This document shows, one piece after another, positions 1,919 through 44,657 of a DNA stretch of 64,000 bases (the first letter of the stretch is position 1; the number at the start of each line of letters is the position of its first letter). Made by a program: the position numbers and the translations under genes. Source of the DNA: a virus. Lineage: Duplodnaviria > Caudoviricetes. The stretch spans positions 1-64,000 of IMG/VR virus record IMGVR_UViG_3300049009_000811; one strand, given 5' to 3'. The notes beneath the pieces are model-generated. The model was not told the origin of the DNA and did not search any database. It saw nothing but the letters and a program-made list of their open reading frames with translations.

Positions 1919-2110
1919 ATGTCTGATTCTGATCTGGACAAGGAACTGCTGGCGAGCATGCTGAGGCACGCGGCGAAGGACATCAGCGACACGATGGGCG
2001 ACGGCGGACCCCTCACCGGCGACCAGGTGGAGGAGGTCGCGCGAATGTTCGTCATACACCTGGCTGACTACAACTGCGAGATGGGGAAGGTGAGGGACAT
2101 ACTGGCTTGA
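1919..2110 (+). CDS. hypothetical protein
   Basis: Motif A, AAGGAG SD; stop TGA abuts next motif A. Confidence 0.75.
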   Translation: MSDSDLDKELLASMLRHAAKDISDTMGDGGPLTGDQVEEVARMFVIHLADYNCEMGKVRDILA

Positions 2111-2165
2111 GCCGTTCGGCTCGGTCACGGAACCCCAAGGTCGTAACCTAACAATGGAGGACGAG

Positions 2166-2447
2166 ATGAGCGACAAGTATTTCGGTGGCGGCGGCAATGG
2201 CTTTTCCGTAACCTACACGGACCTCAAGGTCGAGGGCATGGAGCTTTCGCTCCGGATGTGCTCCGGCGGCGTGAGCGTCACGGCGCGCGAGGGCGGCGAA
2301 GAGAGGACGAGCGAGGTGTTGCCGTGGGGCACGCTGGACGGTCTGCGGGACGCCGGGGGTTACGTCCGCGGGTTCGCGCTCGGGTTCAGCCGGCGGTTCC
2401 GCGCCATGCGAGCCGTTCGGGTCGCGATCGGAACCCTGCATTCGTAA
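2166..2447 (+). CDS. hypothetical protein (C-terminus reads through motif A)
   Basis: GGAGG SD; last codons encoded by the motif A copy at 2412. Confidence 0.7.
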   Translation: MSDKYFGGGGNGFSVTYTDLKVEGMELSLRMCSGGVSVTAREGGEERTSEVLPWGTLDGLRDAGGYVRGFALGFSRRFRAMRAVRVAIGTLHS

Positions 2448-2477
2448 CATTACATCACTTCAAAAAGGAGACTGACG

Positions 2478-2981
2478 ATGGGATACACGCATTACTGGAG
2501 ATTCGACAGGAACGTGTCGGCTTTCCCCGAGAGGAAGAAGGGTTTCGCCCTGGCTGGCGAGACGATACGGAAGGTCATCGCGCTTTCCGGGGTCGGGATA
2601 CACGGCTGGGACGGGCACGGCGATCCGGAGGTGTCGGAGACGCTGATCTCGCTCAACGGGTGCGGCGACACCGGCGAGGACCACGAGTCGTTCGTGGTCG
2701 AGCTCAACGAGAGGGTGTACGAGGACGAGGGGATGCGCAAGTTCCAGAGCCTGCGACCCGGTTTCGGTTTCTGCAAGACGGCGCGGAAGCATTACGACCT
2801 GGTGGTGTGCTGCTCGCTGATAGCGCTGAGCGAGAACATCGAGGGGTTCAAGGTAAGCTCCGACGGCGAGGAAGGCGACTGGTCCGAGGCGTTCGAGTTC
2901 TACGCGGAGAAGGTGAATCCCGAATTCGACTGGAAGGCGTGGACCAGGGAACACATAGGAAGCTGCGCGGAAAGCGATTGA
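2478..2981 (+). CDS. conserved phage hypothetical protein
   Basis: MGYTHYW start and FCKTARKHYD motif; motif A and SD upstream. Confidence 0.8.
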   Translation: MGYTHYWRFDRNVSAFPERKKGFALAGETIRKVIALSGVGIHGWDGHGDPEVSETLISLNGCGDTGEDHESFVVELNERVYEDEGMRKFQSLRPGFGFCKTARKHYDLVVCCSLIALSENIEGFKVSSDGEEGDWSEAFEFYAEKVNPEFDWKAWTREHIGSCAESD

Positions 2982-3076
2982 TTTCATCGGGTCCGGGGCG
3001 AACGGGCATGTCGAGCCGTTCGTTCCGGGTCTGGCACCCTACGGTCGTAACTTAACTTTCAAAAGGAGAACTGGAA

Positions 3077-5431
3077 ATGAAGATTGACAATTTCGGTGGC
3101 GGGGAAATAGGCAGGAGCGACAACCTTGGTGGCGAGACAAGCTTCACCATCGAGAACTCGCCCTTCGCGTTCAAGATACTTTCGGAGTCGCTGTACAGCC
3201 ACAAGATCCAGTCGGTGATCCGGGAATTGAGCACGAACGCGGCTGACGAGCATGTAAGCTCCGGCAAGGGCGACACCCCTTTCGACGTCCACATACCGAC
3301 GGGTTTCGAGCCTTACTTCTCGATCCGCGACTACGGCGCCGGTCTGTCCGAGGCGGACGCGACCACGTTGTACACCACCTTCTTCAAGTCGACGAAGCGA
3401 AACGACAACGCGGTGACGGGATGCCTGGGGCTCGGCTCCAAGTCACCGTTCGCCGTGACCGACAGCTTCACCATCGAGAGTTTCAACGGCGGGTTCAGGA
3501 CGGTCTACACCTGCTTCAAGGACGAGAACTTCTTCCCGAAGCTGGTCGTCCTCGAGAGGGGCGAGAGTTCCGAGCCTACCGGCGTGCGGATACAGTTCCC
3601 CGTGTCCGGATCCCACTGGGACTGGAAGTACGAGGCGGCGCGCGTCTACAAGTTCTTCGCGGTCAAGCCGAACCTCAATTTCGAGATATCCGGCACGGTC
3701 CTCCCCGCCCCGCTCCTCCGCGGCAAGGGATGGGCGATGTACGAGGACATGCACGAGAGTTACGCGGTGATGGGCAACGTAGCCTACCCCATAGACTTCT
3801 CGGCGTTCAAGAGCGACGACGAGCTCCAGAAGGACATCATCGGCGACTTCCGCGGCATGACCGGTTTCGTTTTCGAGTTCCCGCTGGGCGCGGTCAGCTT
3901 CGATCCCTCCAGGGAACGCCTCACCTACAACGTGGCGACCAAGGACGCGATATTCGCCGCCCTGGTGGCGCTCCGCGAGGAGTTCAAGCGGTCCATCGAG
4001 TCTTCGGTCTCCGAGGCGTCCAACCTGTTCGAGGCTCGGATGAAATACGCCAAGGTGACGAACGACCTCCTCAAGCATTTCGACAAGCGTCGGAAGAACG
4101 GCATCGGCTGGATGATCTCCGACATGGTATGCAAGTGGAACGGTCGGGACCTGTTCCCCACGACCTTGGGGCACGTGGTCTCGCTGGCGTCGGTCAGCGG
4201 CGGGGTGATGCACGCCTCGAAGTCCCCGCGTCGCCAGGCGGTCAACATCAACGTGTTCCCCGACATCTCCTTCGACTTCGACCGACCGACCGACATATAC
4301 GTCATCGGCAAGAAGACGAAGAGCGTGCGACGCAGGGCGAGGATGAAGGTCCTCGAGAACAACGATTCCATAATGCTGGTCAACCACGAGGCGGCGGACG
4401 CCGTGGCTCAGGTATTGGGCGCGGACGACGCCAGCGTGTTCAAGTCGGCGGACGACCTTCCCCAGGTGCCGCAGGGCGTTTCCCCCAGTTCCTCGCGGAG
4501 CAGGGTGGTGGCTACCGACCTCGACCGCAGCGGTCGGTCGTTCAACCTGTACGACCTCAACGCGGTCGATAAGGCGCAGCTGTCCGACCTCGAGGGCGAG
4601 GACGCGATGTACGTCATACGGAACAACGACAGCCTCGAGCTGGAGTCGAGCGTCGACTGGGGCTTGCCCGAACTGCAGGGTACGAACTACAGGTACCTCA
4701 CGAAGACCACCTTCCACCAGATGCTGCACATAGCGGACAAGGCTGGTTTCGCCATGCCGAAGACTTTGGTCATACTGAACAGGAGTACAGCCGCTTCGGT
4801 GCGGATCGCCGACAGGGGTTTCCCGAACATCGTGACGGAGGTGATCGAATTCTTCTCCGCGCATCTGAGCGACAAGGGTCTCGCCGAACTGATGGAGGAT
4901 TCCCGCGTGGAGTACTCCTACGTTGACGGCGAAGGCGTCTCCGACTGGGAGGTCAACGATTCGGCTGCCCGCAACATGGACAGGCTTCTGTCGTTGGTCG
5001 GCAAGCTGGAGGTTTCCAACTACCTCACGGGCACCGACGCCGAGCCCAACCCCGCCAGGGAGTTCGCCGATTTCCGGGAACGCGGCACGAAGGAAGAGTC
5101 CACCGTCAGTTCGCGGATCATGGAACTCAACGTCCTCGACGGCGACCTCATGACGAAGAGGAAGCTGTTCCAGACCGCCACCGACCCGCACTGCAAAAAC
5201 GTGGTGGACGACCTGCGCGGCTTGCTCAACCGCAAGGTGGAGACCAACGCCCACCGCAAGTTCGGTTTCGTCGCGGCTAACAAGGACACGGTCACGGCGG
5301 CGCTCAACCACCTGCATTCGGCTGGACTGCTGGAAGGTCTCCATGTCAGGGAGTTGCCGGTCGCCGAGTTCAACATCATCAGCCCTTCGGGGATGATGAC
5401 CGGCGGGAACCCGAATTCCCGTTGGCGGTAA
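3077..5431 (+). CDS. rIIA: rIIA-like protein with N-terminal GHKL/HATPase domain
   Basis: LYSHKIQSVIRELSTNAAD, IRDYGAGLS, GCLGLGSKSPFA, PSRERLTY motifs typical of T4 rIIA; rIIB-like gene nearby. Confidence 0.85.
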   Translation: MKIDNFGGGEIGRSDNLGGETSFTIENSPFAFKILSESLYSHKIQSVIRELSTNAADEHVSSGKGDTPFDVHIPTGFEPYFSIRDYGAGLSEADATTLYTTFFKSTKRNDNAVTGCLGLGSKSPFAVTDSFTIESFNGGFRTVYTCFKDENFFPKLVVLERGESSEPTGVRIQFPVSGSHWDWKYEAARVYKFFAVKPNLNFEISGTVLPAPLLRGKGWAMYEDMHESYAVMGNVAYPIDFSAFKSDDELQKDIIGDFRGMTGFVFEFPLGAVSFDPSRERLTYNVATKDAIFAALVALREEFKRSIESSVSEASNLFEARMKYAKVTNDLLKHFDKRRKNGIGWMISDMVCKWNGRDLFPTTLGHVVSLASVSGGVMHASKSPRRQAVNINVFPDISFDFDRPTDIYVIGKKTKSVRRRARMKVLENNDSIMLVNHEAADAVAQVLGADDASVFKSADDLPQVPQGVSPSSSRSRVVATDLDRSGRSFNLYDLNAVDKAQLSDLEGEDAMYVIRNNDSLELESSVDWGLPELQGTNYRYLTKTTFHQMLHIADKAGFAMPKTLVILNRSTAASVRIADRGFPNIVTEVIEFFSAHLSDKGLAELMEDSRVEYSYVDGEGVSDWEVNDSAARNMDRLLSLVGKLEVSNYLTGTDAEPNPAREFADFRERGTKEESTVSSRIMELNVLDGDLMTKRKLFQTATDPHCKNVVDDLRGLLNRKVETNAHRKFGFVAANKDTVTAALNHLHSAGLLEGLHVRELPVAEFNIISPSGMMTGGNPNSRWR

Positions 5432-5494
5432 GCCGTTCGCCGGGAGTCCGGCACCCCATGGCGGAGGGAACAACAACAACAAAGGGAGGATGCG

Positions 5495-6208
5495 ATGCAG
5501 GAAATCGAGAATCTGGAAGACACGATCGTGAGGATGGAGACCGCGCAGAAGCAGGTCGACGCCCTCAGGCTACACATAACGAGGTCGATACCGGAGGCAT
5601 ACTGGAGGACGGTGATGCCTACGGACCGCAACGACAACCCGATGGAATGGCTCGAGCGGAACATAGGCGGTTTCTCGGGGTCGTATCCCGACTGGCACGT
5701 CATCAGCATGATGCGCCGTTACTCGGGCGTCAAGTCCAGCCTGGGCGGTTCGATGTCACGGCTCGGTCTCGACTTCAAGGGTTCTGACAGCACCGTGGTC
5801 GTGGAACTCGGCGCGGGCTGCGGCTTCCGCGAGGTCAACGGGTTCGGGGGCAAGCTGGTGACGAGGATGAGGTTGTACAACTACGTCCACCACGTCAACA
5901 GGATGCTCAAGGCGGCTTGGCAGGAAAGGTACGGCGACTACATAAACCTGGTAACATGCGGAGACTGGGGAGTCAGCGGTGTCGAGAGTCTCATGTCCGC
6001 GGTGGATTCCGGCAAGCTTCCCGTCATGAGGAGCAGGCACCAGGAGTCGGTGGTGGAGCTCAACGAGGAAGGGGAGATATGCGCCTTCGAAGTTTCGAAG
6101 CGGGTTGACATGATGGTCGGAAGGGTCGCCGGCGACGGCGAGCTTAGGTCTCCCGAGCTTCCTAGCGAGTTCGACGAGTTCCTGTCTGGCTTCAAGATAT
6201 TGCGGTAG
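5495..6208 (+). CDS. hypothetical protein
   Basis: GGGAGG SD, 237 aa, follows motif A. Confidence 0.75.
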   Translation: MQEIENLEDTIVRMETAQKQVDALRLHITRSIPEAYWRTVMPTDRNDNPMEWLERNIGGFSGSYPDWHVISMMRRYSGVKSSLGGSMSRLGLDFKGSDSTVVVELGAGCGFREVNGFGGKLVTRMRLYNYVHHVNRMLKAAWQERYGDYINLVTCGDWGVSGVESLMSAVDSGKLPVMRSRHQESVVELNEEGEICAFEVSKRVDMMVGRVAGDGELRSPELPSEFDEFLSGFKILR

Positions 6209-6290
6209 AATTTCCATGATGTTTGTTTACTTTCCTCATACTTGTAGTATGATGATTTCGGACAAACGAACTTTAACGAAGGAGTATCCT

Positions 6291-7151
6291 ATGAATTGGG
6301 TAATAGACGGATCAGGTTGCGTGAACACCAGCGCTTGCGGGAAAGCATACACTTTCTCGAAGAACCATCCACACTACTCCAGGCTGATCAACTGCCTGAA
6401 GTCGAACAACGTCGAGCATTTCGAGGCTCTGTACGACGTGGGCGCGGCGATAGAGAACTATTGCCAGGGGGCTGTCAGCATCAGCGGGGACCGACTGATG
6501 TGGGACGGCAACCCGATGCCCGAGCTTTTCACCGAGCGGGTCATGGACCTGCGGTCGAGCGGTTCGGACTTCAGCCCGATGATGAACTTCCTCGACAACC
6601 TTTCGGACAACCCGTCCGACAAGTCGATCGTCGAGCTCTTCGATTTCATGCAGCACAAGGAACTGCCGTTGACCCCGGACGGTCACTTCCTCGCCTACAA
6701 GGCTGTTCGTTCCGACTTCCGCGACAAGTACAGCGGCAACTACGACAACAGCGTCGGTAGCGTGGTGGAGGTTTCCCGTGGGGAGGTCAACCCCGACCGC
6801 GACACGCATTGCGGCAGCGGGCTCCATGTGGGCGCCATCGACTACGTCCTCAGCTACGGTTCCGGATTGAGGAAGGACGACGGCGGCAACGTCACGAGGA
6901 ACGACGGCGGCGACCAGGTGGTCGTGTGCAAGGTCAATCCGCGCGACGTGGTCAGCGTTCCCGGCGACGTCCGGTTCCAGAAACTGCGGACCTGCAGGTA
7001 CGAGGTGGTGTCGGTCCTCAAGAAGGTCTACGCGTCTCCAGTGGTGGGTCATAACGGTCCGATCATGGCTTCAAGGTCTGCCAGTCCCGAGCTTGTACGC
7101 AAGATCGGAAGGGTGAGCAAGCTGTTGGCTGGGGTCGGCGCCAGGATCTAG
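6291..7151 (+). CDS. rIIB: rIIB-like protein
   Basis: NFLDNLSDNPS, LPLTPDGHFLAYKAV, CGSGLHVG, VNPRDVVSVP, KLRTCRYEVV motifs; AAGGAG SD before 6291. Confidence 0.85.
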   Translation: MNWVIDGSGCVNTSACGKAYTFSKNHPHYSRLINCLKSNNVEHFEALYDVGAAIENYCQGAVSISGDRLMWDGNPMPELFTERVMDLRSSGSDFSPMMNFLDNLSDNPSDKSIVELFDFMQHKELPLTPDGHFLAYKAVRSDFRDKYSGNYDNSVGSVVEVSRGEVNPDRDTHCGSGLHVGAIDYVLSYGSGLRKDDGGNVTRNDGGDQVVVCKVNPRDVVSVPGDVRFQKLRTCRYEVVSVLKKVYASPVVGHNGPIMASRSASPELVRKIGRVSKLLAGVGARI

Positions 7152-7260
7152 CCCGTCCGCGAGGGCGGGTCGGTTGTTGGTCGGGGGGAGCGACTGGGCG
7201 AAGTTCCCCCCTTCCGATATAAACGGGCATGATGCCTCATGTAGACGAAAGGAGTCGTTC

Positions 7261-7500
7261 GTGTTGCTGATGAGAAGTCTGTTAGCCGCGGTCACGATAA
7301 ACGCGATAATGTGGTATTGCATCAGCGGATGCTTTGCCTGGTACAACGTCTCGATAGCTGTCTGGTGTTTCGCGGAGTGGACGAGCGCGTTCAGGGATTC
7401 CGACAAGGAGGATATCCTTGATTGGGTCTTGCCGCCGCTCAACCAGCTCTGCCTGGCGTTCAGGGTGGTGGTTCAGGAGTTCGACAAGACGTCCCTTTAG
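7261..7500 (+). CDS. small membrane protein
   Basis: AAGGAG before GTG; hydrophobic; stop TAG overlaps degenerate motif A. Confidence 0.5.
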   Translation: MLLMRSLLAAVTINAIMWYCISGCFAWYNVSIAVWCFAEWTSAFRDSDKEDILDWVLPPLNQLCLAFRVVVQEFDKTSL

Positions 7501-7562
7501 CCGTTCGTGCCGGGAGAGGAATCCCGGTGTCGGCTTTGGACGAGACCCATGGAGTGTTACAG

Positions 7563-7814
7563 ATGGAAAGCAGGAAAAGCAGGAAGATGACCCCGGAGTT
7601 GCTGATAAAGACGTACATGAAGCTCGGCACCGCCGAGAAGACAGCCAGGAAGCTGGGCGTCGGCGTCAGCTACGTCAAGACGAAGCTCTGGCTCCTGCGC
7701 AAGGCTGGTCTCCCGATACCGAAGGAGAAGGCTGTGGCGCGGAAGACCTTCGAGGAGGCTGTCAAGAGGAACTTCAACGGTTTGAGGAGCCTGGTCATCC
7801 AGCTCAGCAAGTAA
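7563..7814 (+). CDS. small basic HTH-like DNA-binding protein
   Basis: TAEKTARKLGVGVSYVKTKLWLLRKAG helix-turn-helix pattern. Confidence 0.6.
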   Translation: MESRKSRKMTPELLIKTYMKLGTAEKTARKLGVGVSYVKTKLWLLRKAGLPIPKEKAVARKTFEEAVKRNFNGLRSLVIQLSK

Positions 7815-7839
7815 CCGAGCCCGTCGTTTCGGATCAATG

Positions 7840-7867
7840 GAAGCCGGGCATCGCCCCGGCTTTTTTC
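7840..7867 (+). terminator. intrinsic terminator
   Basis: AAGCCGGG-CATCGC-CCCGGCTT followed by T-run. Confidence 0.75.
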
Positions 7868-7998
7868 GTTTCCCCGGAATAATTCCCGGTTGGGCGGAAA
7901 TTTCCCGGACCGCGGGACGAATAAGGTATGTCGAGCCGTTCGTTCCCGTTCTGGCACCCGATGTTCGTGTCATGGAAATTTAACTTCATCAAGGAGAT

Positions 7999-8370
7999 AT
8001 GATTATGGCTAGCTTCGTGAATCTTACGCCTCACGCGATCACCGTTCTCGCCGTCAACGGCGGGGAGTCCACCTTCCAGCCTTCGGGCAAGGTGGCTCGG
8101 GTATCCGAACTCCCGACTACCGTCATCGGTCAGGTAAACGGCGTGCCCGTACTGTCCAAGACGGTGTTCGGCGACGTCATCGACCTTCCGGAGCCGCAGG
8201 ACGGCGTGTTCTTCCTCGTTTCCGGGATGGTGGCTGGTCAGGTGTTGAACCGCAAGGACGTGCTTGCGCCAGCCACCGGACCTAACGACGGCGCGATCAG
8301 GAACGACAAGGGTCACATCGTCGCGGTGACGCAGCTCAAGTCCACCTCGACGTCGCTTCCCGGACTATAG
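7999..8370 (+). CDS. conserved viral hypothetical protein (NLTPH family)
   Basis: NLTPH...PSGKVARV...LPEPQDGV..LVS...RKDVLAP...RNDKGHI pattern. Confidence 0.75.
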   Translation: MIMASFVNLTPHAITVLAVNGGESTFQPSGKVARVSELPTTVIGQVNGVPVLSKTVFGDVIDLPEPQDGVFFLVSGMVAGQVLNRKDVLAPATGPNDGAIRNDKGHIVAVTQLKSTSTSLPGL

Positions 8371-8523
8371 TCGAAATGGAATAGCCCATCTGGATTGACG
8401 CCAGGTGGGCTATTCCCGTTTCCGGGAAACAGGTGTACTGACCTCCGGAGGCTGGATAGCCGTTCGCCTGGAACTTGGCACCCGATGTCCGTGTGGCTTA
8501 CAGAAACCAAGAGGAGAATCGCC

Positions 8524-8916
8524 ATGAGTTTCATCGAGACAGCTTTCCAGGAGATATGCCTGGATTCGAAAAAGCCGAAGACCTGGTACGTCACGCTGTG
8601 CGTCAACGAGCGTTGCTATGGCGGACCAGAGGAGGGTGGCTGGTGGTATGACCGCGCCGCTGTCTTGGAGTACAAGTCGTTCCCGGACGAGGACACGGCT
8701 GCCGCCGTGGCTGACCGGGTTAGGGAGCGGGCTGCCGAGCTTTCGCTGGAAGCCGAGAGGGTCCACGGCGAGGCTTGCCTCAGTTCCCTCGACTGGCTTG
8801 AGGCTAGGGGTCTGGAGCCAGACTACCTCCCGGAGCCGAACGGACCAGAGGAGTATTTCGTGATGGTCACGGAATCGGTACCGAGCTTCTCCGTCGGCAA
8901 GCCGACATACGAATAG
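8524..8916 (+). CDS. conserved phage hypothetical protein
   Basis: YGGPEEGGWWY motif; GAGGAG SD. Confidence 0.75.
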   Translation: MSFIETAFQEICLDSKKPKTWYVTLCVNERCYGGPEEGGWWYDRAAVLEYKSFPDEDTAAAVADRVRERAAELSLEAERVHGEACLSSLDWLEARGLEPDYLPEPNGPEEYFVMVTESVPSFSVGKPTYE

Positions 8917-8926
8917 GGGGAACGCC

Positions 8927-9190
8927 ATGAGGGAACGCAAGGGCGGGGACGGGAGTCTTCGCATCCCGAACTTCATTGACATGAGATCGATGAAGAAGGG
9001 CGAGGCGAGGGTGTTCGCTTTGAGGAGCAGCACCGCCGTCGCCATGGTGCAGCACAGGATCGGCGGCAGCTTCACGCAGAGCGTGGCTATACTGGTCGAT
9101 CCGAAAACCGCGGTCTCGCAGAGGGTCCAGGTGGTGACCTGCCTGGGGCGCGCGCCGAAACATGTCCGCAAGAAAAGGACGACGGCGTGA
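8927..9190 (+). CDS. hypothetical basic protein
   Basis: Closely follows previous gene, ends just before motif A. Confidence 0.55.
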   Translation: MRERKGGDGSLRIPNFIDMRSMKKGEARVFALRSSTAVAMVQHRIGGSFTQSVAILVDPKTAVSQRVQVVTCLGRAPKHVRKKRTTA

Positions 9191-9259
9191 ACAGCCGTTC
9201 GTCCGGGGTCTGGCACCCGATGGTCGTAACTTACTTTCAACTCAAAGGGAGAACCGAAG

Positions 9260-10345
9260 ATGGCTACTGGCGAAAAGAAGAAGAAACCGGTCAAGAAGAA
9301 GAAACTGATCAACGCTGGCAACCTCACTGGAGACCTTTCCGGTATCTGGGGCGACGCCAAGCACATCGAGGGCAATGCGTCCAACATCAAGGGCGACGTT
9401 TCCAAACTCTGCTCTTGGGATGAGAATCTCGCCCCGAACACTGATAAAAACCGCATCGAAATGTGTCTAGAAGATCGAGACAACGGACGTAAGAGAGACG
9501 TGTCCGAGCTCAGCGGAGACGTTTCAGAGATCATCGGACTTTTTGCTACCAGCCTCACCGGCGACGTGTCCGGGATCAGTGGGTGTGCGTCCGAACTTAG
9601 GGGCGACGTGTCCGGGATCATCGGCGACCCAATAAACATCTGGGGCGATGTGTCTGGTATCTGGGGCGATGTGTCCGATCTCAGCGGAGATGTGTCCGAT
9701 ATCAGCGGAGATGTGTCCGATATCAGCGGCGACGTGGACGAGATCAGCGGCGACTTGACCGGGATCAGCGGCGACGTGTCCGGTCTCAGCGGCGACGTGG
9801 ACGAGATCACGGGCGACGTGTCCGGTCTCAGCGGCGACGTGGACGAGATCACGGGCGACGTGTCAGGTCTCATGGGCGACGTAACGAACATCAGCGGCGA
9901 CGTGACGAACATCAATGGCGACGTGAACAGCTGCTTGTATGGCGACGCGCGCGGGATCGAGGGTGACGTCACGAACATCAGGGGCGACGTGTCCGGTCTA
10001 GGTGGCGACGTTACGAATCTCAGGGGAGACGTGACCGGGATCGAGGGCTACTTGGATGGTTTCATGGGAGACGTGTCCGGTCTCAGCGGCAACGTTTACG
10101 GTCTTACTGGAGACGTGTCTGGTCTAAAGGGAAAATTGAAACCATTCGATGGCGACGTGTCCGAGGTCAGCGGTTGGAAGCCGGAGCAACTTAAAATTTA
10201 CGTAGCAGAAATGGTCAACCATGGCTGGATGCGTGTCAGTTCGGAGCAAGGCAATCCGGGTGGCACAGGAAAACCAGAGAAGAAGTCCAAGGAGTCTCGC
10301 CTGGTCGAGCTGCTCGAAGAGATCAAGGCGTTGTTCGCCGAGTAG
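9260..10345 (+). CDS. GDV heptapeptide-repeat protein, paralogue 2
   Basis: Lys-rich N-terminus, LINAGNLTGDLSGIWGDAK cap, repeats, tail ESRLVELLEEIKALFAE. Confidence 0.88.
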   Translation: MATGEKKKKPVKKKKLINAGNLTGDLSGIWGDAKHIEGNASNIKGDVSKLCSWDENLAPNTDKNRIEMCLEDRDNGRKRDVSELSGDVSEIIGLFATSLTGDVSGISGCASELRGDVSGIIGDPINIWGDVSGIWGDVSDLSGDVSDISGDVSDISGDVDEISGDLTGISGDVSGLSGDVDEITGDVSGLSGDVDEITGDVSGLMGDVTNISGDVTNINGDVNSCLYGDARGIEGDVTNIRGDVSGLGGDVTNLRGDVTGIEGYLDGFMGDVSGLSGNVYGLTGDVSGLKGKLKPFDGDVSEVSGWKPEQLKIYVAEMVNHGWMRVSSEQGNPGGTGKPEKKSKESRLVELLEEIKALFAE

Positions 10346-10410: not shown

Positions 10411-11589
10411 ATGGCTACTGGCGAAAAGAAGAAGAAACCGGTCAAGAAGAAATTGGTCAAGAAGAAGAAACTGATCAACGCTGGCAACCTCACTGGAGAC
10501 CTTTCCAGTATATGGGGCGACGCTGGTAAGCTCAAGGGCAGAACTGGAGTTCTCGCATGCCATTCTGCATGCGCCGATTCAAAAGTGTCCAGAATCAGTG
10601 GCGACGTAACGAACATCAAGGGCGATCCGACAAACATCAGCGGCGATGTCACGAAGATCAGGGGCGACGTTTCTGGCATCAAGGGCGATGTCACGAAGAT
10701 CAAGGGCGACGTTTCTGGCATCAAGGGCGATGTCACGAAGATCAAGGGCGACGTGACTGGCATCAAGGGCAATGTGCGCTGGCTCGGGGGCGATGTAGAA
10801 GACTTGGTTCGTCAAGGCGAGCTGAAGAAAATAAATCATAAGCTAAAAAAGGAACTTTTTAATGTCGGCGAAGAAGGAGAACTTACCGGAGACCTTTCCG
10901 GGATCTGGGGCGACGCCAAGAACATCAGGGGCGACGCTTCCAACATCAGGGGCGACGTGACTGGGATCGAGGGAGACCAGCCTTATCACGGCGAAAAAGC
11001 TTATGTAACGGATCTAAGGGGCGATGTAACGAACATAAGCGGCTTCATCGGAGGCATCACGGGGGATGTCACGAATCTTAGGGGGGATGTGACTGGTATC
11101 TCCACGTTCATGTGGGAAAGAGGCGAAGATTACCATACATGGGGCGAAGCCGACATGTCTGATCTCAGCGGCAATGTGAATGGAATCTATGGAGATGTGA
11201 CATATCAATTTGGTGACACGAATGGAAGCAGCAAATTTTATGGATATAGGGGCGAATGGTCCAATCTCAGCGGCGATGTAGAAGATCTGGTTCGACAAGG
11301 TCGGCTAAACTATTTTTCGAAGCATGAGCTAAAAGAGATGTATAAGATCGGTCGTGTCGCGTCAGCGACTAAGGCTGTCAAGGCGAAGGAAAATCCCGAG
11401 ACAAACCTGGTCGTTGGCAAAGTGTTCACGAATTTCGTTTTGTCTGAGAACTCTACTGGCGCTATGGTCAAAGCTTCTTATCTGGTTTGCCAAGGCAATC
11501 CCGGTGGCACAGGCAAACCAGATAAGAAGTCCAAGGAGTCTCGCCTGGTCGAGCTGCTCGAAGAGATCAAGGCGTTGTTCGCCGAGTAG
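10411..11589 (+). CDS. GDV heptapeptide-repeat protein, paralogue 3 (two repeat domains)
   Basis: Same leader, N- and C-terminus as 9260; two GDVEDLVRQG caps. Confidence 0.88.
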   Translation: MATGEKKKKPVKKKLVKKKKLINAGNLTGDLSSIWGDAGKLKGRTGVLACHSACADSKVSRISGDVTNIKGDPTNISGDVTKIRGDVSGIKGDVTKIKGDVSGIKGDVTKIKGDVTGIKGNVRWLGGDVEDLVRQGELKKINHKLKKELFNVGEEGELTGDLSGIWGDAKNIRGDASNIRGDVTGIEGDQPYHGEKAYVTDLRGDVTNISGFIGGITGDVTNLRGDVTGISTFMWERGEDYHTWGEADMSDLSGNVNGIYGDVTYQFGDTNGSSKFYGYRGEWSNLSGDVEDLVRQGRLNYFSKHELKEMYKIGRVASATKAVKAKENPETNLVVGKVFTNFVLSENSTGAMVKASYLVCQGNPGGTGKPDKKSKESRLVELLEEIKALFAE

Positions 11590-13134: not shown

Positions 13135-13890
13135 ATGGCTACTTGTAAGAAGAAGAATAAACTGATAAACACGGGCTTGCTTACCGGAAACCTGGATGGG
13201 ATTTTCGGCGACGCCAAGAACATCAAGGGCAACGTCTCGAATATCAAGGGCGACGTGACGAAACTCAGCGGCGACGTGTCTGGTCTCGAGGGCGACGTGA
13301 CGAAACTCAGCGGCGACGCGACCGACGTCCTCGGAGACGTGAGCAACATCAGCGGAAACTTGTCGAAGATCTGGGGCGAGGCTTTCGGTCTTATTGGCGA
13401 TGTCTCGAACATCTATGGACAAGCGTCCAGCTACGTATGGGGAGACGTCACGGATCTCGAGGGCGACATTTCCAGGATAGAGGGAGACGTTACGGGTCTC
13501 AAGGGCGAACTCTTCGGCATCTGGGGAGTCGTCACGAACATCAGGGGAAAGCTGCGGACGCACGGAAAGTGTCCTGAGTACGGCGAGTTACCAGGTCTCA
13601 GCGGATACGTGACGAACATCAGCGGAAACGTGTCCAACATCTGGGGCTACGTGGGCGGTCTCGACGGTCTAAGGGGCGACGTTTCCAAGATCGAGGGCGA
13701 CGTGTCCGAGATCAGGGGCGACGTTTCTCATATCAGCGGCGACGTGTTCGGTCTCAGCGGACACGTGTCCAATATCTATGGCGACGTGTCCGGTATCCAT
13801 GGCGACGTCACCGGTCTCAAGGGCACCCCGAGCGGTCTCTTTGGCAAAGTCAAAAAACTGGTTAAAAACGGCTGGCTGGAACGATGCTAG
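13135..13890 (+). CDS. GDV heptapeptide-repeat protein, paralogue 4
   Basis: MATCKKKNKLINTGLLTGNL cap and repeats; stop TAG overlaps motif A. Confidence 0.85.
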   Translation: MATCKKKNKLINTGLLTGNLDGIFGDAKNIKGNVSNIKGDVTKLSGDVSGLEGDVTKLSGDATDVLGDVSNISGNLSKIWGEAFGLIGDVSNIYGQASSYVWGDVTDLEGDISRIEGDVTGLKGELFGIWGVVTNIRGKLRTHGKCPEYGELPGLSGYVTNISGNVSNIWGYVGGLDGLRGDVSKIEGDVSEIRGDVSHISGDVFGLSGHVSNIYGDVSGIHGDVTGLKGTPSGLFGKVKKLVKNGWLERC

Positions 13891-25227: not shown

Positions 25228-25518
25228 CTAGAGGCGGTAGAAGTGGTACGACCACGAGAATCCGCGGTCCCACCAGAAGCCGTGCTTCCGCGCGACCTCG
25301 TTGAGCTTGTCGACGGTCATGTCGCCCGCGCGACCCTTGCCGTACCCGTTCAGCAGGTGGTGAAGCTCGCCCTCGCAGACGAGGGTGAACACGGAGCCAT
25401 CCCCCACGCTCTCGCCCCTGTCAGCCCACTCCTCTTGGCTGTAGACGTTGGTGTCGTCGTACTTTTTCGCGAGGTCGTCGAGAACCTTGCGCATCTTCTT
25501 CTCGTCGCATATCACCAT
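25228..25518 (-). CDS. hypothetical protein
   Basis: Minus motif A and SD; stop TAG overlaps next motif. Confidence 0.75.
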   Translation of the reverse strand: MVICDEKKMRKVLDDLAKKYDDTNVYSQEEWADRGESVGDGSVFTLVCEGELHHLLNGYGKGRAGDMTVDKLNEVARKHGFWWDRGFSWSYHFYRL

Positions 25519-27049: not shown

Positions 27050-27388
27050 ATGATAGAACTGAAACAAGGCTACGAATTGATCGACATATCCGTCAAGTGC
27101 CAGTCCCAGTCCTGGTACTGGCAAGAGATACGCGACTACGGTGGCGTCAAGCTGCGAGCCAACATCCAGCGCAACGCCTACGATGACCAGTCGTACGCCA
27201 ACATCGAGCAGTTCTCCGACCAGAAGGGCTGGCTCGTCGTCGCCTCGCATCCGATCACGAAATATTCCGTCAGCAAGATGTCGTATGTCTGGGAGATGAC
27301 GGACGACAGGCGAGATCTGTTCAGGGATTGCGCCGACCGGCTTTTCAAGCTTGGCGAGGCGTTCATCGGCTTCGACGGGAAAAGCTAG
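27050..27388 (+). CDS. hypothetical protein
   Basis: Motif A and SD; RNAYDDQSYA; ends GKS-stop in motif A. Confidence 0.75.
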   Translation: MIELKQGYELIDISVKCQSQSWYWQEIRDYGGVKLRANIQRNAYDDQSYANIEQFSDQKGWLVVASHPITKYSVSKMSYVWEMTDDRRDLFRDCADRLFKLGEAFIGFDGKS

Positions 27389-27454: not shown

Positions 27455-27742
27455 ATGTCCGCTAAAAGCAAAGCCGAAAAACATGCCGACACGCTTGCTG
27501 GCATGATAGACGGCAAAGATGACGATCTGGCTAAGACGCTTGAACCCATCAGAAAGTTCTTGTTGAGCCTTGATAAAGCCGAAAAAACAAAGTCGGCTTC
27601 CGACTCCAAGCTCGTGGCGGCGGCGCCAGAGTTGCTGGACGCGTGCAGGTATCTTCTGGCAAACGCAAAAGCAGAAGGATGGAGCGAGTTTATGCTTGGC
27701 GACGCACGTTCTGCCATCGCCAAGGCGACGAGGAAAAGCTAG
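27455..27742 (+). CDS. AAPELL/AIAKAT-family phage protein
   Basis: LVAAAPELLDAC...ARSAIAKATRKS. Confidence 0.75.
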   Translation: MSAKSKAEKHADTLAGMIDGKDDDLAKTLEPIRKFLLSLDKAEKTKSASDSKLVAAAPELLDACRYLLANAKAEGWSEFMLGDARSAIAKATRKS

Positions 27743-28018: not shown

Positions 28019-28185
28019 ACAAGTACCTGTGCGTTTATTTCGGCACCAAGGTGGAGATCAAGGCTGAAAGCCGCAAGGAAGCCTTGGAGCAGATGGTCGA
28101 GATGCTCGGCATAAGGAAGAAAAGCCAGCCCAAGGTGATGGTGCTGCTGATGGAACGCAACGGCGAGAGCATATTCGCCAGCTAG
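28015..28185 (+). CDS. small hypothetical protein
   Basis: GGAGG SD, ATGA overlap with previous gene; IKAESRKEA. Confidence 0.65.
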   Translation: MNKYLCVYFGTKVEIKAESRKEALEQMVEMLGIRKKSQPKVMVLLMERNGESIFAS

Positions 28186-28231: not shown

Positions 28232-28627
28232 ATGAAGATGATAAAAAAGTTAAAAAAGGAGGTTGTTTTCTCTGACAGCAACAAGAGGGACTGCCACATC
28301 GTCAACAGTAGTCTGGTTTACCCTGACGCTGTTTGGTTCGGTCTGAGTTCACCGCGAGGACAAAGGCTCCATCTTACCCAGGATTGCATGGACGACCTCG
28401 TCAAGGGCATCGAACTGATCAAGAATGGGGCAAAGAAGTTCGACGGGCTTGACCACTACAAATCCAGATACACCCTCACCCAGAACAATGGCGGCTTCCA
28501 TCTTACGGTGACAAGCGAATTCGGGAAAAAAAAGGTTAGTCGCGCGAACTTGATGTCGTTCGATCTCGAGTCCGCGGAATCGGTCTACGATTTACTGAGC
28601 GACTTCAGAGTCGGATACACAATCTAG
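28232..28627 (+). CDS. hypothetical protein
   Basis: Truncated motif A and SD; begins MKMIKKLKKE. Confidence 0.7.
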   Translation: MKMIKKLKKEVVFSDSNKRDCHIVNSSLVYPDAVWFGLSSPRGQRLHLTQDCMDDLVKGIELIKNGAKKFDGLDHYKSRYTLTQNNGGFHLTVTSEFGKKKVSRANLMSFDLESAESVYDLLSDFRVGYTI

Positions 28628-32490: not shown

Positions 32491-32817
32491 ATGATCAACG
32501 AAGACCTGTACCTGGACTTCCCCCCGGTACGACCGGTCCCGGAAGGCAATAAGACCTGCCCAGCCTGCGAAGGTCACGGCGGGTACAACGTGAGGCTGAA
32601 CGCCTACCCTCTGCACCGGTACGAGAACACCAGGGAGAACCGGCACCTGCACGCCCACTTCAGGCACGGGTGCGTCAACTGCAACGGCTTGGGCTACGTC
32701 CCCGAGGACCAGGATTGCGTCCACCAGTGGGGCGAGAGGCGTACCGTCGGCATGTCGCAGCACAGGTACTCCTGCGTCAACTGCGGAAGCCAGTGGACCG
32801 TCGACAGCGGCGACTGA
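32491..32817 (+). CDS. zinc-finger protein (DnaJ-type CxxCxGxG)
   Basis: CPACEGHG, CVNCNGLG, CVHQW, CVNCG. Confidence 0.75.
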   Translation: MINEDLYLDFPPVRPVPEGNKTCPACEGHGGYNVRLNAYPLHRYENTRENRHLHAHFRHGCVNCNGLGYVPEDQDCVHQWGERRTVGMSQHRYSCVNCGSQWTVDSGD

Positions 32818-33439: not shown

Positions 33440-33696
33440 TGTTGAAAGTAAAAGTAGAAGATTTAAAAGAAGGCGATCTTGTCGATTTAGAAAGCTGCCC
33501 CTACATGAAAGATTATCAATGGGCTAAGTGGGATATGGCTATAGTTTCCAGTGTAACAAAAGAATTTGTTGCTCGTTTTAATGAAAATCGTGTGGTAGTA
33601 AGTTATCGAGATATAGTCTGCCATATAGATACTGTTGATTATCCACTCGGAACTGTTCTGGAAGCCGTTCCCCGGCTACCCGGAACCCAACAATAG
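33439..33696 (+). CDS. hypothetical protein (reads through motif A)
   Basis: VEDLKEGDLVDLE; last codons encoded by motif A at 33664. Confidence 0.65.
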   Translation: MLKVKVEDLKEGDLVDLESCPYMKDYQWAKWDMAIVSSVTKEFVARFNENRVVVSYRDIVCHIDTVDYPLGTVLEAVPRLPGTQQ

Positions 33697-36319: not shown

Positions 36320-36718
36320 CTAGACCGGGATACTTATCTTGAAGTAATCCCAGGTCTTGCTGGATACATGCTCGACCTTGCCCCCGATGGACTCGACCGA
36401 TCTCGTGACCGACGACACGCCGGATCCAGAAGGGAAGAAAGCCTTCCGCACCTTCGTGACGACCCGAGCCTTGCCGCGACCCGACTTGACCTCGTCGTCG
36501 AAGAAGCCGATGCCCTTGGCTGTAGCCTCGTTCTTCAGCGCCGCTTCCTGCACCTGCGGGATCTGGTCCAGGCACTCCGCCAGAACCGTGGAAAGCTTGC
36601 AATAGCCGCAGCCCGAGGCTTTGGCGGTCGCAGCCCCACCTGGATGGTAGGCTACTGCGTGGGGGTTCATCCCCCAGGTCTTCGATTTCTTCCATTCAAC
36701 CTTCACTTCAATTTCCAT
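36320..36718 (-). CDS. conserved phage hypothetical protein
   Basis: VEWKKSKTWGMNPHA, ASGCGYCKLSTVLA. Confidence 0.75.
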   Translation of the reverse strand: MEIEVKVEWKKSKTWGMNPHAVAYHPGGAATAKASGCGYCKLSTVLAECLDQIPQVQEAALKNEATAKGIGFFDDEVKSGRGKARVVTKVRKAFFPSGSGVSSVTRSVESIGGKVEHVSSKTWDYFKISIPV

Positions 36719-38229: not shown

Positions 38230-38541
38230 ATGAACAAGATCGACGAGATGCTGGAAGCGAAGATAAAGGAAGAATTGACACCGGTCGATATCGAGGAATA
38301 TTACGCGGCAGCACTCGACGACATTTACCCCGTCGTTGAGATAGGACATTCCAGATTCAGCCCGAGCAGTATCGTAAGGGAACTTTCCCCGACAGATTTC
38401 CGCTGCGGGATGAACGACTACATCGACGGCGACGACACGCTCGAGTACGTGGCTGACGAATGGTACAGAGCCGACGAAATCCAGAAGCTCCGCGAGGAGA
38501 TCGAGGAAGAGATCGAGGCTGCGGAAGCGGAAGAGGACTAG
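38230..38541 (+). CDS. acidic conserved phage protein
   Basis: LDDIYP.V.IG..FSPS.IVREL.PT.FRCGMNDY.D. Confidence 0.75.
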   Translation: MNKIDEMLEAKIKEELTPVDIEEYYAAALDDIYPVVEIGHSRFSPSSIVRELSPTDFRCGMNDYIDGDDTLEYVADEWYRADEIQKLREEIEEEIEAAEAEED

Positions 38542-38608: not shown

Positions 38609-38806
38609 ATGTATGTAAAAGCAAAAACGACAGAGGAAAAATTGATCGATCTTGTTAAGGAGCTTGCTGGACATCTGGAAGATGTTTACATTCAACCTGA
38701 CTTTGATGAAAATCAGTATGGGCAAAAACTTTGCGATAGGGCAAATAAATTTGCCTATAAAGCTGATAAAAGAAGGAACGAAATCTACAAAAAAGCAGGA
38801 GTTTAA
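38609..38806 (+). CDS. small AT-rich hypothetical protein
   Basis: Motif A and SD. Confidence 0.7.
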   Translation: MYVKAKTTEEKLIDLVKELAGHLEDVYIQPDFDENQYGQKLCDRANKFAYKADKRRNEIYKKAGV

Positions 38807-39089: not shown

Positions 39090-39278
39090 ATGAAGAAATT
39101 CACGGTAAAGGTTTGCAGGATCTCATACGGGTTCAACGACATCGAGGTGGACGCGGAAACGCCGGAGCAAGCCGAAGAGCTTGCCCTCGAGAACGCTGGC
39201 GACTACCTATTCAGCGAAAAAAGCAGCGAATATACGACCGATGGCGCAACCGAGAAGGAGCATATAAATGGAAGATGA
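39090..39278 (+). CDS. small hypothetical protein
   Basis: AAGGAG SD; IEVDAETPEQAEELA. Confidence 0.7.
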   Translation: MKKFTVKVCRISYGFNDIEVDAETPEQAEELALENAGDYLFSEKSSEYTTDGATEKEHINGR

Positions 39279-39525
39279 TTATTTCCGCGTTCCGACCTGG
39301 ACGGAAGTCTGCAGGGAGTACGCGGCGAACGTAGGAGGGGATCGACCCGAGCAGGCTTGGATCCTCACCCCATGGGACACCTGGGAACGCAACCCAGCCT
39401 ATTCCGGCGTGTTCGCGGACGCCCCGCACCCGTTCATCTCGGTGGAAGACTTCTACGACGACGACGGAGGCGCGCAGGCTCCGGCACCGGAGAAGCCGAC
39501 TGAACCGGACGACTGTCCGTTCTAG
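39268..39525 (+). CDS. conserved phage hypothetical protein
   Basis: G.DRPEQAWILTPWDTWERNP.YSG. Confidence 0.75.
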   Translation: MEDDYFRVPTWTEVCREYAANVGGDRPEQAWILTPWDTWERNPAYSGVFADAPHPFISVEDFYDDDGGAQAPAPEKPTEPDDCPF

Positions 39526-39585: not shown

Positions 39586-39762
39586 ATGAGTCATACGCCA
39601 GAGAAAATAAATTCCGAGTTGCTCAACATGCTCATGAGAATGGTCGATGAATGTTCTTATTCCCATGTCACCCCCGAGGGCGTTGAAATCGCCAGCAGAC
39701 CGTGCCCAATCACGATGCAGCATGCCCGCGAAGCCATCGCAAAGGCGACAGGAAAAAGCTAG
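39586..39762 (+). CDS. small AIAKAT-family protein
   Basis: MSHTP...ELL...AREAIAKATGKS. Confidence 0.7.
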   Translation: MSHTPEKINSELLNMLMRMVDECSYSHVTPEGVEIASRPCPITMQHAREAIAKATGKS

Positions 39763-39834: not shown

Positions 39835-40236
39835 ATGAAAAGAACAAGAACAGTAGAAATTGAAGATGTTTTAGATTCATGTGTAGAAACAGCAATCGAT
39901 AAAGTTAAGGATTTACTGGAAGAATACATAAAAGAAAACGATTCCGGTCCTTTGCCTGATATCAATAACGACTTGGATTACTCTGGCTCCGTTCACGAAA
40001 TAATCGATAGGTCTGTACCAGATTATTACAAGGTCATAGACGATACTTGGTATCTTTATAAAGAAGATTTGATCGAAGCTTACGAAAATTCCGGAATGGG
40101 CGACAATCCCATGGATGGCAACGGAACAGTTGCGATATATTGCTATATCGAACAAAAAGTAGGCGAATGGTACCGAAAAGAAGCGCAAGACATATTTGAT
40201 GAAATAGTCAGTAAGAAGAAGAAAAAGAAAAGCTAG
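39835..40236 (+). CDS. Ocr-like (T7 gp0.3-like) acidic anti-restriction candidate
   Basis: VHEIIDRSVPDYYKVI..EAYENSGM..AIY aligns by eye to recalled T7 Ocr IHMAADNAVPHYYADI..LEFEDSGL..RIY. Confidence 0.6.
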   Translation: MKRTRTVEIEDVLDSCVETAIDKVKDLLEEYIKENDSGPLPDINNDLDYSGSVHEIIDRSVPDYYKVIDDTWYLYKEDLIEAYENSGMGDNPMDGNGTVAIYCYIEQKVGEWYRKEAQDIFDEIVSKKKKKKS

Positions 40237-40294
40237 CCGTTCCCCGACATCTGGAACCCTACAAACGTAACTCAACACTAACAGGAGAAGAATA

Positions 40295-40585
40295 ATGACC
40301 GATAAACCAAAGTGGGACTTAGAAGAAGTTCCTTTTGAAAACAACGATCCTGCGGGTGGATGGTATCTCCACTTTGATACAGAGGCAGATCATGAAGTTC
40401 TATACATGAGTAAAAGCAATGTATCAGAAGAACAAGCCAATCTAATAGCAGCGTCGCCAGAGTTGCTGGAAACGCTGAAAGACATTTCTGTTTGGTTGAC
40501 AGCACCTTCTACGGACAAAGCAACCATCGATCATTGGAAGCAAAAGGTTTCAACAGCCATCGCAAAGGCGACAGGAAAAAGCTAG
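40295..40585 (+). CDS. AAPELL/AIAKAT-family phage protein
   Basis: ANLIAASPELLETLK...AIAKATGKS. Confidence 0.75.
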   Translation: MTDKPKWDLEEVPFENNDPAGGWYLHFDTEADHEVLYMSKSNVSEEQANLIAASPELLETLKDISVWLTAPSTDKATIDHWKQKVSTAIAKATGKS

Positions 40586-43036: not shown

Positions 43037-43116
43037 CACGGGAACGGACGCGCGGAAACGAAGAAAGCCAGGGATTACTCCCTGGCTTTCTCATTTAAGT
43101 CAGTCTGCGCCCGCCA

Positions 43117-43200
43117 CTAGTCGGCTGCGCCAGTCGCGCATACCGCAGACACGAGGATCGAACCCATCATCGCCACGACCAACCACAGGTAAATTTCCAT
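43117..43200 (-). CDS. 27-aa hydrophobic peptide
   Basis: Minus motif A and AAGGAG SD; MEIYLWLVVAMMGSILVSAV. Confidence 0.5.
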   Translation of the reverse strand: MEIYLWLVVAMMGSILVSAVCATGAAD

Positions 43201-43269
43201 CTTTCATTCTCCTTCAAAGTTTTTGTTTCCCGCCACACGAACATAGGGTGCCGCGTGGCGGGCGAACGG

Positions 43270-43698
43270 CTATTCGGAAGCCATCATCGCGTCCCTCACC
43301 CTCGACGAGTGGTTGGTGCAATGGTGGTCATTCCCGGCGTAGGACTCGCCGCATCCCCTGCATACATTCGTCGCGGGCTTGACCCAGCTTTCGTTGCTCA
43401 AAGCCCACCGCAGCCGCTTCTCCGCGCGCTCCAGCGACACCTTCGCCTCGTCGGAACCGGGTTTCGCCTGCAGCGTCAACACCAGGTCGAGGACCTCGTC
43501 GCACCAGGCTTCGCTCGGGAACTGGTCATCCATCGCCCCGGTCAGCGTCTCCAGCACGTAAGCGAGGGTACGTTCCCGGCGGAAGAACTTGGACGTCCTC
43601 TCCCGGTCCTTCTGCCACACGACCATGCTTAGGTCATGAGCGAGGAACGCAGCGTGCGTCTCCAGCAACATCCCGATAACCTTCTTCTCCTTCTCCAT
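43270..43698 (-). CDS. hypothetical protein with C-terminal Zn ribbon
   Basis: AAGGAG SD; CRGCG...HHC; stop overlaps motif A. Confidence 0.7.
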   Translation of the reverse strand: MEKEKKVIGMLLETHAAFLAHDLSMVVWQKDRERTSKFFRRERTLAYVLETLTGAMDDQFPSEAWCDEVLDLVLTLQAKPGSDEAKVSLERAEKRLRWALSNESWVKPATNVCRGCGESYAGNDHHCTNHSSRVRDAMMASE

Positions 43699-43946
43699 GA
43701 CACGACTCCTTTCAAAAGTCCGATCTCCCGGGTTCCGCCCGACATAGGGCGAACGCCATACCCGCGAACCACCATATAGGTGGCGAGGTGCCAGACCCGG
43801 CAAGAACGGCTAAGTCATTCGCCCGGAACCGGGAAAGTTTGCATGGAAAAACCGATATTTTCCTTTTTCCCCGTTCCGTGAGCCGTTCGACAGCGGACCG
43901 GCACCCCATAGCCGTGTGACAAACATCAAAACGAGAGGGATTGATC

Positions 43947-44657
43947 ATGGGAATGTTCTCCTGGTGCTGCAAGGGATGCGGCGAAGAGATATGCCGCGGC
44001 GAGTTCGCCCGGCTCAACGGAAGAAAACAGGTCTACGGCGGATACGGCGACGGCGACCACGACGAATACGTCGCCTGGCACCAGCGCTGCTACGGCGCTG
44101 CGACCAAGGAACAGAAGCTGGACGACAACCCCAGCAAGCCCGCGAAAAACCAGGGCATGGGCGCCGCGAGGCTGCGTTTCCTCGAGGGCTACGACGAGGG
44201 CAAGCCGGTCACCTACACCGCGGTCCTGTACGCCTACGGCGAGAAGGGGCAATTCGAGTTCTTCTACACCAACTCCGGCAAGCTGGAGAACCAGACGTCC
44301 TATGACGCCCTCTACGAGGCTGAGGTCGACAAGCCTTCCGGTTTCGACTACGAGGCGTGGACGCTGCTCCCAGCGGAGGACAAGAAGAAGGCGAAAGAGG
44401 AACACCTGAAGAAGATAGAGGAAGCAATCGGCTTCCCTTCCCCGCGCGACAACGCCAAGGTTTTCGGCTCGAGGGTCGATGCGCTCGTGTTGGCACTCGC
44501 GGCGCTGGATCGCGCGGCGCTGGCTCGCGACCTGCCGGAGGAGTGCGGGGGGAGATACCATCTGATCGTCCTCGGCAGGCAGGGCGATATCGAGGGATCC
44601 GTCTACGAGCGGGTAAGCCGTTCGGAAACCGACCGGAACCCCACCATCGTAAAATAA
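43947..44657 (+). CDS. hypothetical protein (reads through motif A)
   Basis: MGMFSWCCKGCG, YGGYG, WHQRCY, NQG; last codons in motif A at 44617. Confidence 0.75.
   Translation: MGMFSWCCKGCGEEICRGEFARLNGRKQVYGGYGDGDHDEYVAWHQRCYGAATKEQKLDDNPSKPAKNQGMGAARLRFLEGYDEGKPVTYTAVLYAYGEKGQFEFFYTNSGKLENQTSYDALYEAEVDKPSGFDYEAWTLLPAEDKKKAKEEHLKKIEEAIGFPSPRDNAKVFGSRVDALVLALAALDRAALARDLPEECGGRYHLIVLGRQGDIEGSVYERVSRSETDRNPTIVK

Follow-up and report, generated by a model that had tools for sequence, protein, structure and literature searches.

A repeated promoter-like unit meets upstream stop codons and marks mosaic breakpoints in the early region of a large uncultivated phage

Results

Genomic context and relatives

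The window analysed here is the first 64 kb of a 115,719-bp IMG/VR virus record (IMGVR_UViG_3300049009_000811; CheckV completeness about 24%). It carries a repeated element, motif A, whose left edge had been proposed, from the sequence alone, to coincide with the ends of upstream genes. We read the record as a piece of a large T4-like myovirus and its first 52 kb as an early-type region of small genes. The window encodes an rIIA-like protein (3077-5431; match to phrog_612, E=2e-104), an ATP-dependent ligase and an AAA ATPase, and a match to the T4 rIIB Pfam family was obtained in the orthologous region of a relative, L210. Beyond the window, the record encodes C5-methyltransferases, a baseplate wedge protein and a 3917-aa open reading frame (ORF). 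Among nine small cargo proteins scanned besides rIIA, seven had no PHROG match at E <= 0.001 and none had a Pfam match. The repeated units thus lie among small orphan genes in a plastic part of a T4-type phage genome, near rII-type early genes. Two HNH_3 endonuclease genes are also found in the contig (22449-22976 and 57641-58114), and in L210 three more adjoin the array, just upstream of the point where the contig of the window begins.

The gene model was built afresh for this analysis under translation table 11, and its gene ends were reproduced by independent gene calls in relatives. A recoding of TAG was considered and rejected: TAG closes 62 of the 176 ORFs called under table 11, and the 3917-codon ORF is open under that code. 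Relatives carrying motif A were reached by protein look-ups (L085, L086, L210 and L211 from ENA; L208 and L209 from JGI), and L085 has 29 copies of the motif in 16 kb. Exact-pattern scans for motif A returned a single chance match only in IMG/VR and, in the JGI metagenomes, a single chance match only among the matches listed. No relatives were found in a related-locus search with the rIIA-like and AAA proteins, nor by megablast of 20 kb against GenBank phages.

Anatomy of the motif A unit

The array consists of 65 motif A units between positions 950 and 52021, each directed at its downstream gene. The unit is laid out as A-GCCGTTC-N11-GGMACCC-N-A-Y-NN-TCGT, followed by an A-rich leader, AGGAGA and ATG. 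The window contains 74 occurrences of GCCGTTC against an expectation of 14, and 65 window copies match GCCGTTC-N10-12-GG[AC]A[CT]CC. Aligning 67 copies from the genome gave the consensus A(-1)-GCCGTTC-g-c/t-N9-GG-A/C-ACCC-N-A-Y-N-N-T-C-G-T; below, positions are counted from the first G of GCCGTTC (G0), preceded by A-1. To the left of A-1, base preferences are weak (C at -3 in 37 of the 67 copies). An AGGAGA-type Shine-Dalgarno sequence (SD) and an ATG lie downstream of every copy in the same orientation, the ATG being 59-73 nt from G0. Columns 25-30 form a -10-like TAYNNT, with the A present in 64/67 copies and the T in 49/67. Copies stand back to back at the divergent junctions 25891/26000, 37484/37527, 43810/43882 and 47890/48041, and no copy was found between convergent genes. 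Judged only by this position and orientation, motif A is most likely a phage promoter.

A mutual-information scan of the motif and its surroundings detected no covarying pairs, its sole signal being two leader subclasses. Of the junctions with longer spacers, roughly half carry either a GC hairpin or a terminator-like stem with Ts after it between the upstream stop and the motif. One copy (28185-28231) has lost the GGAACCC block through an internal deletion that left leader, SD and ATG in place, and may be a dead promoter.

Stop codons fused to motif A

Nineteen upstream genes end with a stop codon fused to motif A, 16 of them with a TAG on A-1/G0 and three with a TGA or TAA on A-1. Full motif copies are used by 15 of the TAGs and the internally deleted copy by the 16th. 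All 18 fused stops listed in the original prediction were recovered, and the stop at 7500 was added.

The stops sharing A-1 alone, all on the plus strand, are the TGA of gene 1919-2110 (2108..2110), the TAA of the rIIA-like gene 3077-5431 (5429..5431) and the TGA of gene 32491-32817 (32815..32817). On the same strand, TAGs fused to A-1/G0 close gene 7261-7500 (7498..7500, the added site), the coiled-coil gene 9260-10345 (10343..10345, in a tandem duplicate with 11589), gene 10411-11589 (11587..11589), gene 13135-13890 (13888..13890), gene 27050-27388 (27386..27388, tail G-K-S), the AIAKATRKS gene 27455-27742 (27740..27742), gene 27976-28185 (28183..28185, on the copy without the GGAACCC block), gene 28232-28627 (28625..28627), gene 38230-38541 (38539..38541, tail E-E-D), gene 39268-39525 (39523..39525), the AIAKATGKS gene 39586-39762 (39760..39762), the ocr-like gene 39835-40236 (ending at 40236) and a further AIAKATGKS gene, 40295-40585 (40583..40585). 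Those on the minus strand close genes 25228-25518 (25228..25230), 36320-36718 (36320..36322) and 43270-43698 (43270..43272).

It had also been noticed that genes from three unrelated families end in the same AAAAGCTAG (K-S-stop). We found all five such ends, at 27388, 27742, 39762, 40236 and 40585; they belong to three paralogues of the AIAKATG family, to the gene starting at 27050 and to the ocr-like gene. AIAKATG is conserved across its family, so only the K-S-stop is extra in these paralogues. Between the ends at 39762 and 40585 there is full identity over 30 nt ahead of the motif and over about 50 nt of motif sequence. The tails GAGGACTAG and GAAGAGCTAG, each shared by unrelated genes, were considered as evidence of borrowed tails and set aside, as they are purine-rich and of low complexity and may match by chance.

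Relatives carry fused ends at the same genes as the window. Moreover, genes that are missing from the window also end on the unit, with a fused TGA at L085 3745 and fused TAGs at L085 6317 and L208 6918.

Stop-to-motif distances

Stop offsets were tabulated for the 54 motif copies that have a co-directional upstream gene. The stop lies at offset 0 in 15 copies, at -1 in three, at -2, -4 and -6 in two each and at -9, -10, -13 and -17 in one each, so that 28 of the 54 stops are within 17 nt of the motif and 20 within 2 nt. A second class of spacers, 32-48 nt long, carries a GC hairpin, and a third, of 82-91 nt, carries a terminator-like sequence together with a second repeated element, motif B. 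A T is present at -2 in 18 copies and serves as part of an in-frame stop in 15 of these (P=2e-5 against 1/3). As it is nearly confined to the copies that use it, this T is present because it makes a stop. The unit therefore contributes only the A and the G of a fused stop, and the T belongs to the gene. The proposal that the conserved unit supplies stop, promoter, SD and start thus has to be amended with respect to the stop.

If a gene is taken to abut the motif, a stop at offset 0 needs one specified base, a stop at -1 two and a stop further upstream three, which gives weights of 16:8:3. The 20 stops at offsets 0, -1 and -2 divide into TAG, TGA/TAA and detached as 15:3:2, which does not differ significantly from the expected 11.9:5.9:2.2 (P=0.11). 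The excess at offset 0 is significant only over wider ranges (P=0.03 for -6 to 0; P=3e-4 for -17 to 0). At co-directional junctions lacking the motif, stop and start are separated by 15 nt or less in 43 of 84 cases (51%), 17 of which overlap, showing that genes in this genome are as a rule packed tightly against whatever element follows. Motif junctions have a similar abutting share. Ordinary compaction plus the AG dinucleotide had been named as what might account for the pattern; it explains most of the offset distribution, but does not fully explain the excess at offset 0 over the -17 to 0 range.

ORFs that read through the motif and the limits of homology

Three ORFs were said to have no stop before the motif and to be translated through it, which our gene model bears out: 2166-2447 stops at +35, 33439-33696 at +32 and 43947-44657 at +40, having read 11, 10 and 13 codons into the motif, respectively. 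At 83010, beyond the window, there is a fourth such ORF (+11). The tails encoded by the motif, all on the plus strand, are AVRVAIGTLHS plus stop (2412..2447), AVPRLPGTQQ plus stop (33664..33696) and SRSETDRNPTIVK plus stop (44616..44657).

For two of these ORFs, homology to outside relatives ends exactly where the motif-encoded tail begins. The 33439-33696 protein matches P0135 (86% identical) up to residue 75, after which P0135 has a native tail of 10 other residues; in the window protein, the motif-encoded tail takes its place. Homologues of the 43947-44657 protein at 34-53% identity align as far as ...DIEGSVYER and run on for another 25-40 residues, with a similar end common to P0004, P0005 and P0009, whereas its relatives at 89-98% identity share the motif-encoded tail. 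For 2166-2447, only close relatives were found, all of them with the same tail. Among the genes with fused stops, tblastn of 36320-36718 and 43270-43698 against phages gave no match, and the matches of 38230-38541 stop short of its acidic tail. The expectation that homologues elsewhere would not end in the same residues failed at least for gene 32491-32817, whose homologue in L084 (40%) does so.

Orthologue tails also vary with the unit that follows them. L085_6015 and L208_6619 are 93.5% identical over residues 1-93 and differ in their last 6-7 residues, along with the downstream unit. Tails thus appear to travel with units.

Mosaic breakpoints coincide with the units

We compared the window with L085, L208 and L210 and asked whether the 45 internal ends of homology blocks fall within a unit zone running from -16 to +75 of G0. 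Units contain 21 of the 45 block ends, where 13% are expected (P=4e-8). These ends cluster at the left edge (-1 to -6) and at the SD and start codon (+54 to +73), and eight lie at -1 to -16. Replacements and indels relative to close relatives start just past the SD of one unit and end at the left edge of the next. Unit 39525, for example, is identical to L085 5526 through the SD (as far as ...CAACAGGAGAA) and is followed by unrelated ORFs. One and the same unit is found at 40585 and L085 6317, with unrelated ORFs ending on it in cTAG in the two contigs.

Breakpoints also occur inside the motif. The motif at L085 2842 is chimeric, its left half being that of the unit at window position 50257 and its right half, together with the gene, that of the unit at 48041, which implies a crossover inside the motif. 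One unit-plus-gene is found at different genomic places in the two contigs, window 48041 and L085 2842. A two-gene indel in L085 is flanked by a direct repeat, GGCTGAGCCGTTCA. In L210, a 105-aa pentapeptide-repeat ORF that is absent from the window (L210:9650-10004, equivalent to window 2148-2169) is flanked by a 22-nt SD-ATG direct repeat, and the TAA of the ORF lies inside this repeat.

The window further contains a tandem duplication of motif, leader and coiled-coil gene (9194-11654), present as a single copy in L210. Near-identical units stand at 9194, 10345 and 11589, and the last two are preceded by the same 60 nt. What looked in L210 like a 128-nt spacer with the rIIA end duplicated turned out to be a scaffold gap, a run of Ns with duplicated flanks (L210:13267-13366), and was discarded as an artefact.

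ORFs acquired from AT-rich phages

Two AT-rich cargo ORFs match AT-rich phages at the DNA level. The segment 33303..33663 (plus strand) is 84% identical in DNA to the AT-rich phage contig L212, and this identity ends at motif position -1; its G+C content at third codon positions (GC3) is about 0.3, against 0.79 for the genome. The ocr-like ORF (39835..40236, plus strand; GC3 0.37) is 80% identical in DNA to the AT-rich contig L206, from the ATG to 7 nt before motif A. Comparison of its tail (40205-40236) with L206:10360-10405 reveals a 7-nt deletion that turned poly-E into poly-K and removed the ORF's own TAA, so that the ORF now has a poly-K-S tail and runs to the motif-made TAG. Its close relatives differ in the number of K residues. 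As homology is confined to the stretch that starts at the ATG and stops 0-7 nt short of motif A, these comparisons support the view that both ORFs were acquired bare. Together with the breakpoints at the SD and the left edge, they uphold the proposal that the variable cargo is close to a bare ORF between units.

Low GC3 values (0.28-0.41, against about 0.8 elsewhere in the region) are also found for cargo at 26520-26900, 32035-32367, 33236-33696, 38609-38806 and 39835-40585, which suggests that these genes are recent acquisitions from AT-rich phages.

Relatives with other motifs

L084, a distant relative, has 21 copies of (c/t)TGATACCAAC before genes between 2834 and 20322, and in 11 of them the motif's internal TGA is the stop of the upstream gene. 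In L206 (GC 37%), 44 copies of CAACTTGTGTACTG / CAACTTGTGTACTGTATTGG are found within 20 kb (455-20385); upstream stops typically lie 8-12 nt before TTGTG and are often a TAG or TAA inside a TTAGCC/TAGACT-like hexamer. In L081, terminators stand between the stops and the motif. AT-rich relatives thus appear to show the same habit with different sequences.

Discussion

Our results are probably best explained by a promoter-leader-SD unit that doubles as a recombination substrate around near-bare ORFs, in the manner of the promoter-early stem-loop (PeSL) cassettes of T4-type phages (Arbiol et al. 2010, PMC2839356; Comeau et al. 2014, PMC4122927). Motif A would be the promoter part of a regulatory unit of roughly 60 nt, made of promoter, short A-rich leader, SD and start codon, and this unit would be repeated before nearly every small gene of the early, rII-containing plastic region. 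Because there are some 65 near-identical copies in 52 kb, the units could serve as recombination sites, and crossovers in them or at their edges would delete, duplicate, move or replace the ORFs between them, as PeSLs do. Genes would be packed against the next functional element, an ORF usually reaching the first constrained base of the unit; as the edge of the unit reads A-G, a single T gives a TAG with a 2-nt overlap, which would explain why TAG dominates. Where a gene end is lost through a recombination joint or a frameshift, the ORF would read on until it halts at the motif-made TAG or 10-13 codons inside the motif. Both the promoter activity and the recombination pathway are what we infer from the arrangement of the sequences.

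Several observations weigh against this explanation. Motif A lacks a TTGACA-like box, a scan for the sigma-70 consensus found 6 matches where 7 were expected, and no sigma factor was detected in the 115-kb fragment, which represents about 24% of the genome. Nor does the unit appear to include the stem-loop by which PeSLs are defined: its spacers fold at -5.64 kcal/mol, no more stably than shuffled spacers (-5.86 kcal/mol). The joint at -1 (33663), the AAAAGCTAG end common to three families and the excess at offset 0 are not fully accounted for by compaction. Moreover, homologous recombination between units does not suffice to account for ORFs taken up from AT-rich phages whose motifs are different; such ORFs may possibly have entered through illegitimate joints that were then trimmed, or through microhomology at the SD-ATG and in purine-rich tails.

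The pattern could in principle arise from plain compaction, that is, from a promoter, tight packing and an AG edge, the units having no special role in exchange and the breakpoints merely mirroring conserved DNA between variable genes. We consider this unlikely. The TAG : TGA/TAA : detached ratio does fit the AG weights (P=0.11), the abutting share (38-53%) is close to the 51% of motif-less junctions at 15 nt or less, and gene 32491-32817 and its L084 homologue end at the same residue. Against it stand a chimeric unit with a crossover inside the motif, an indel between direct motif repeats, the unit-plus-gene that occupies differing places in the window (48041) and L085 (2842), the covariation of orthologue tails with the downstream unit and the genes cut off exactly at the motif edge.

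Two further explanations were considered. It seems quite improbable that the left edge is a specific joint at which bare ORFs, including some from phages of other composition and other promoter motifs, are captured like integron cassettes at att by a phage enzyme, for example an HNH enzyme, that cuts or recombines A|GCCGTTC. Such a site would account for the exact joint of the acquired AT-rich segment at -1, for two independent breakpoints directly after GCCGTTCA, at +7, and for the eight block ends at -1 to -16, and HNH_3 genes are at hand in the contig and, three of them, beside the array in L210. If true, this would be a promoter-linked, integron-like gene capture in a giant phage, with ORFs pasted against a ready-made stop-promoter-SD unit. 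Against it, crossovers are scattered (+7, +25/+27, +37, within the spacer, and +54 to +73), which fits homology-driven exchange and not a single place of cutting; some joints fall 7-24 nt within the upstream gene, the searches for an att-like structure and for covariation were negative, and no match to the tyrosine integrase family (PF00589) was obtained in the 115 kb, about 24% of the genome. Highly improbable, in our view, is a mobile unit, a promoter cassette resembling a miniature inverted-repeat transposable element that inserts at or into gene 3' ends, truncating genes and creating fused stops. The truncation of the genes at 43947 and 33439 at the left edge and the near-identity of units lying far apart (39762/40585, 49608/50257) would be expected of it, but the inspected flanks of all copies show neither target-site duplications nor terminal inverted repeats. 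The left flanks are of a few short shared types, and the right end has no duplicated target; that end is set by the SD and ATG of the gene rather than by an element terminus, and the compositionally foreign DNA is the ORF, not the unit.

Comparison with known systems

The likeness to PeSLs lies in where the units are concentrated, namely among small orphan genes in plastic DNA close to rII-type early genes, and in the fact that units bound indels, replacements and relocations between close relatives, internal crossovers giving chimeric units. Features of PeSLs are a strong sigma-70-like early promoter, with -35 and -10 boxes, and excised mini-circles of one ORF and one chimeric unit. The conserved sequence described here differs in being GC-rich and bipartite and in having no likeness to sigma-70 promoters. 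The unit appears to lack a stem-loop of its own, terminator hairpins and motif B lying upstream of some units only. Spacers are also often absent here, so that the stop overlaps the first bases of the unit or the ORF enters it.

Like integrons, the region forms an array of mostly promoter-less single ORFs between repeated sites, with cargo of diverse composition. Unlike in integrons, the units most likely carry their own promoter and SD, and crossovers are distributed across them; the 115 kb yielded no integrase, and there is no attC-like folded site.

The start-associated sequences of Cluster K mycobacteriophages are likewise conserved and repeated at a fixed short distance upstream of many starts; they are about 13 bp long and overlap the ribosome-binding site. 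To our knowledge, they have not been described as recombination joints or as overlapping upstream stops. The ATGA/TAATG overlaps of compact phage operons also share stop bases with the next element, and overlaps of this kind are common in this genome as well (17 overlapping junctions). In the case of motif A, the bases shared with the stop are part of a promoter-like motif, and the next start follows only about 65 nt later; translational coupling is therefore not the cause of the overlap.

The array offers a single-base view of accessory-gene turnover in a large uncultivated phage, sometimes across lineages of very different GC content, and would carry the PeSL idea from cultured T4-type coliphages and vibriophages over to a GC-rich lineage whose promoters are of another type. 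Natural variants in dozens of metagenome contigs can be used to map crossovers; one 93-aa protein alone is indexed in 77 blocks of the collection. For annotation, C-terminal tails beside such units call for caution, as they may be promoter-encoded and lie outside the protein family.

Other repeated elements

Motif B (about CCGGAAACCGGTGTACTGACCTCC) is found about 45-60 nt upstream of some motif A copies and, in junctions with 82-91 nt spacers, is placed between the terminator-like sequence and motif A. It neighbours the motif A copies at 8459, 26991, 37854, 38163, 40967, 48357, 48947 and 50257 on the plus strand, those at 47083 and 47410 on the minus strand, and the divergent pair 37484 (minus)/37527. 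The GTGTACTG core of motif B is found again in the principal repeat of L206, the AT-rich relative. Finally, the neighbouring genes at 32878 and 33236 both begin with MPFRT and both follow a AAACCCAACAAGGAGA leader, the second copy of which sits inside the 3' end of the first MPFRT gene.

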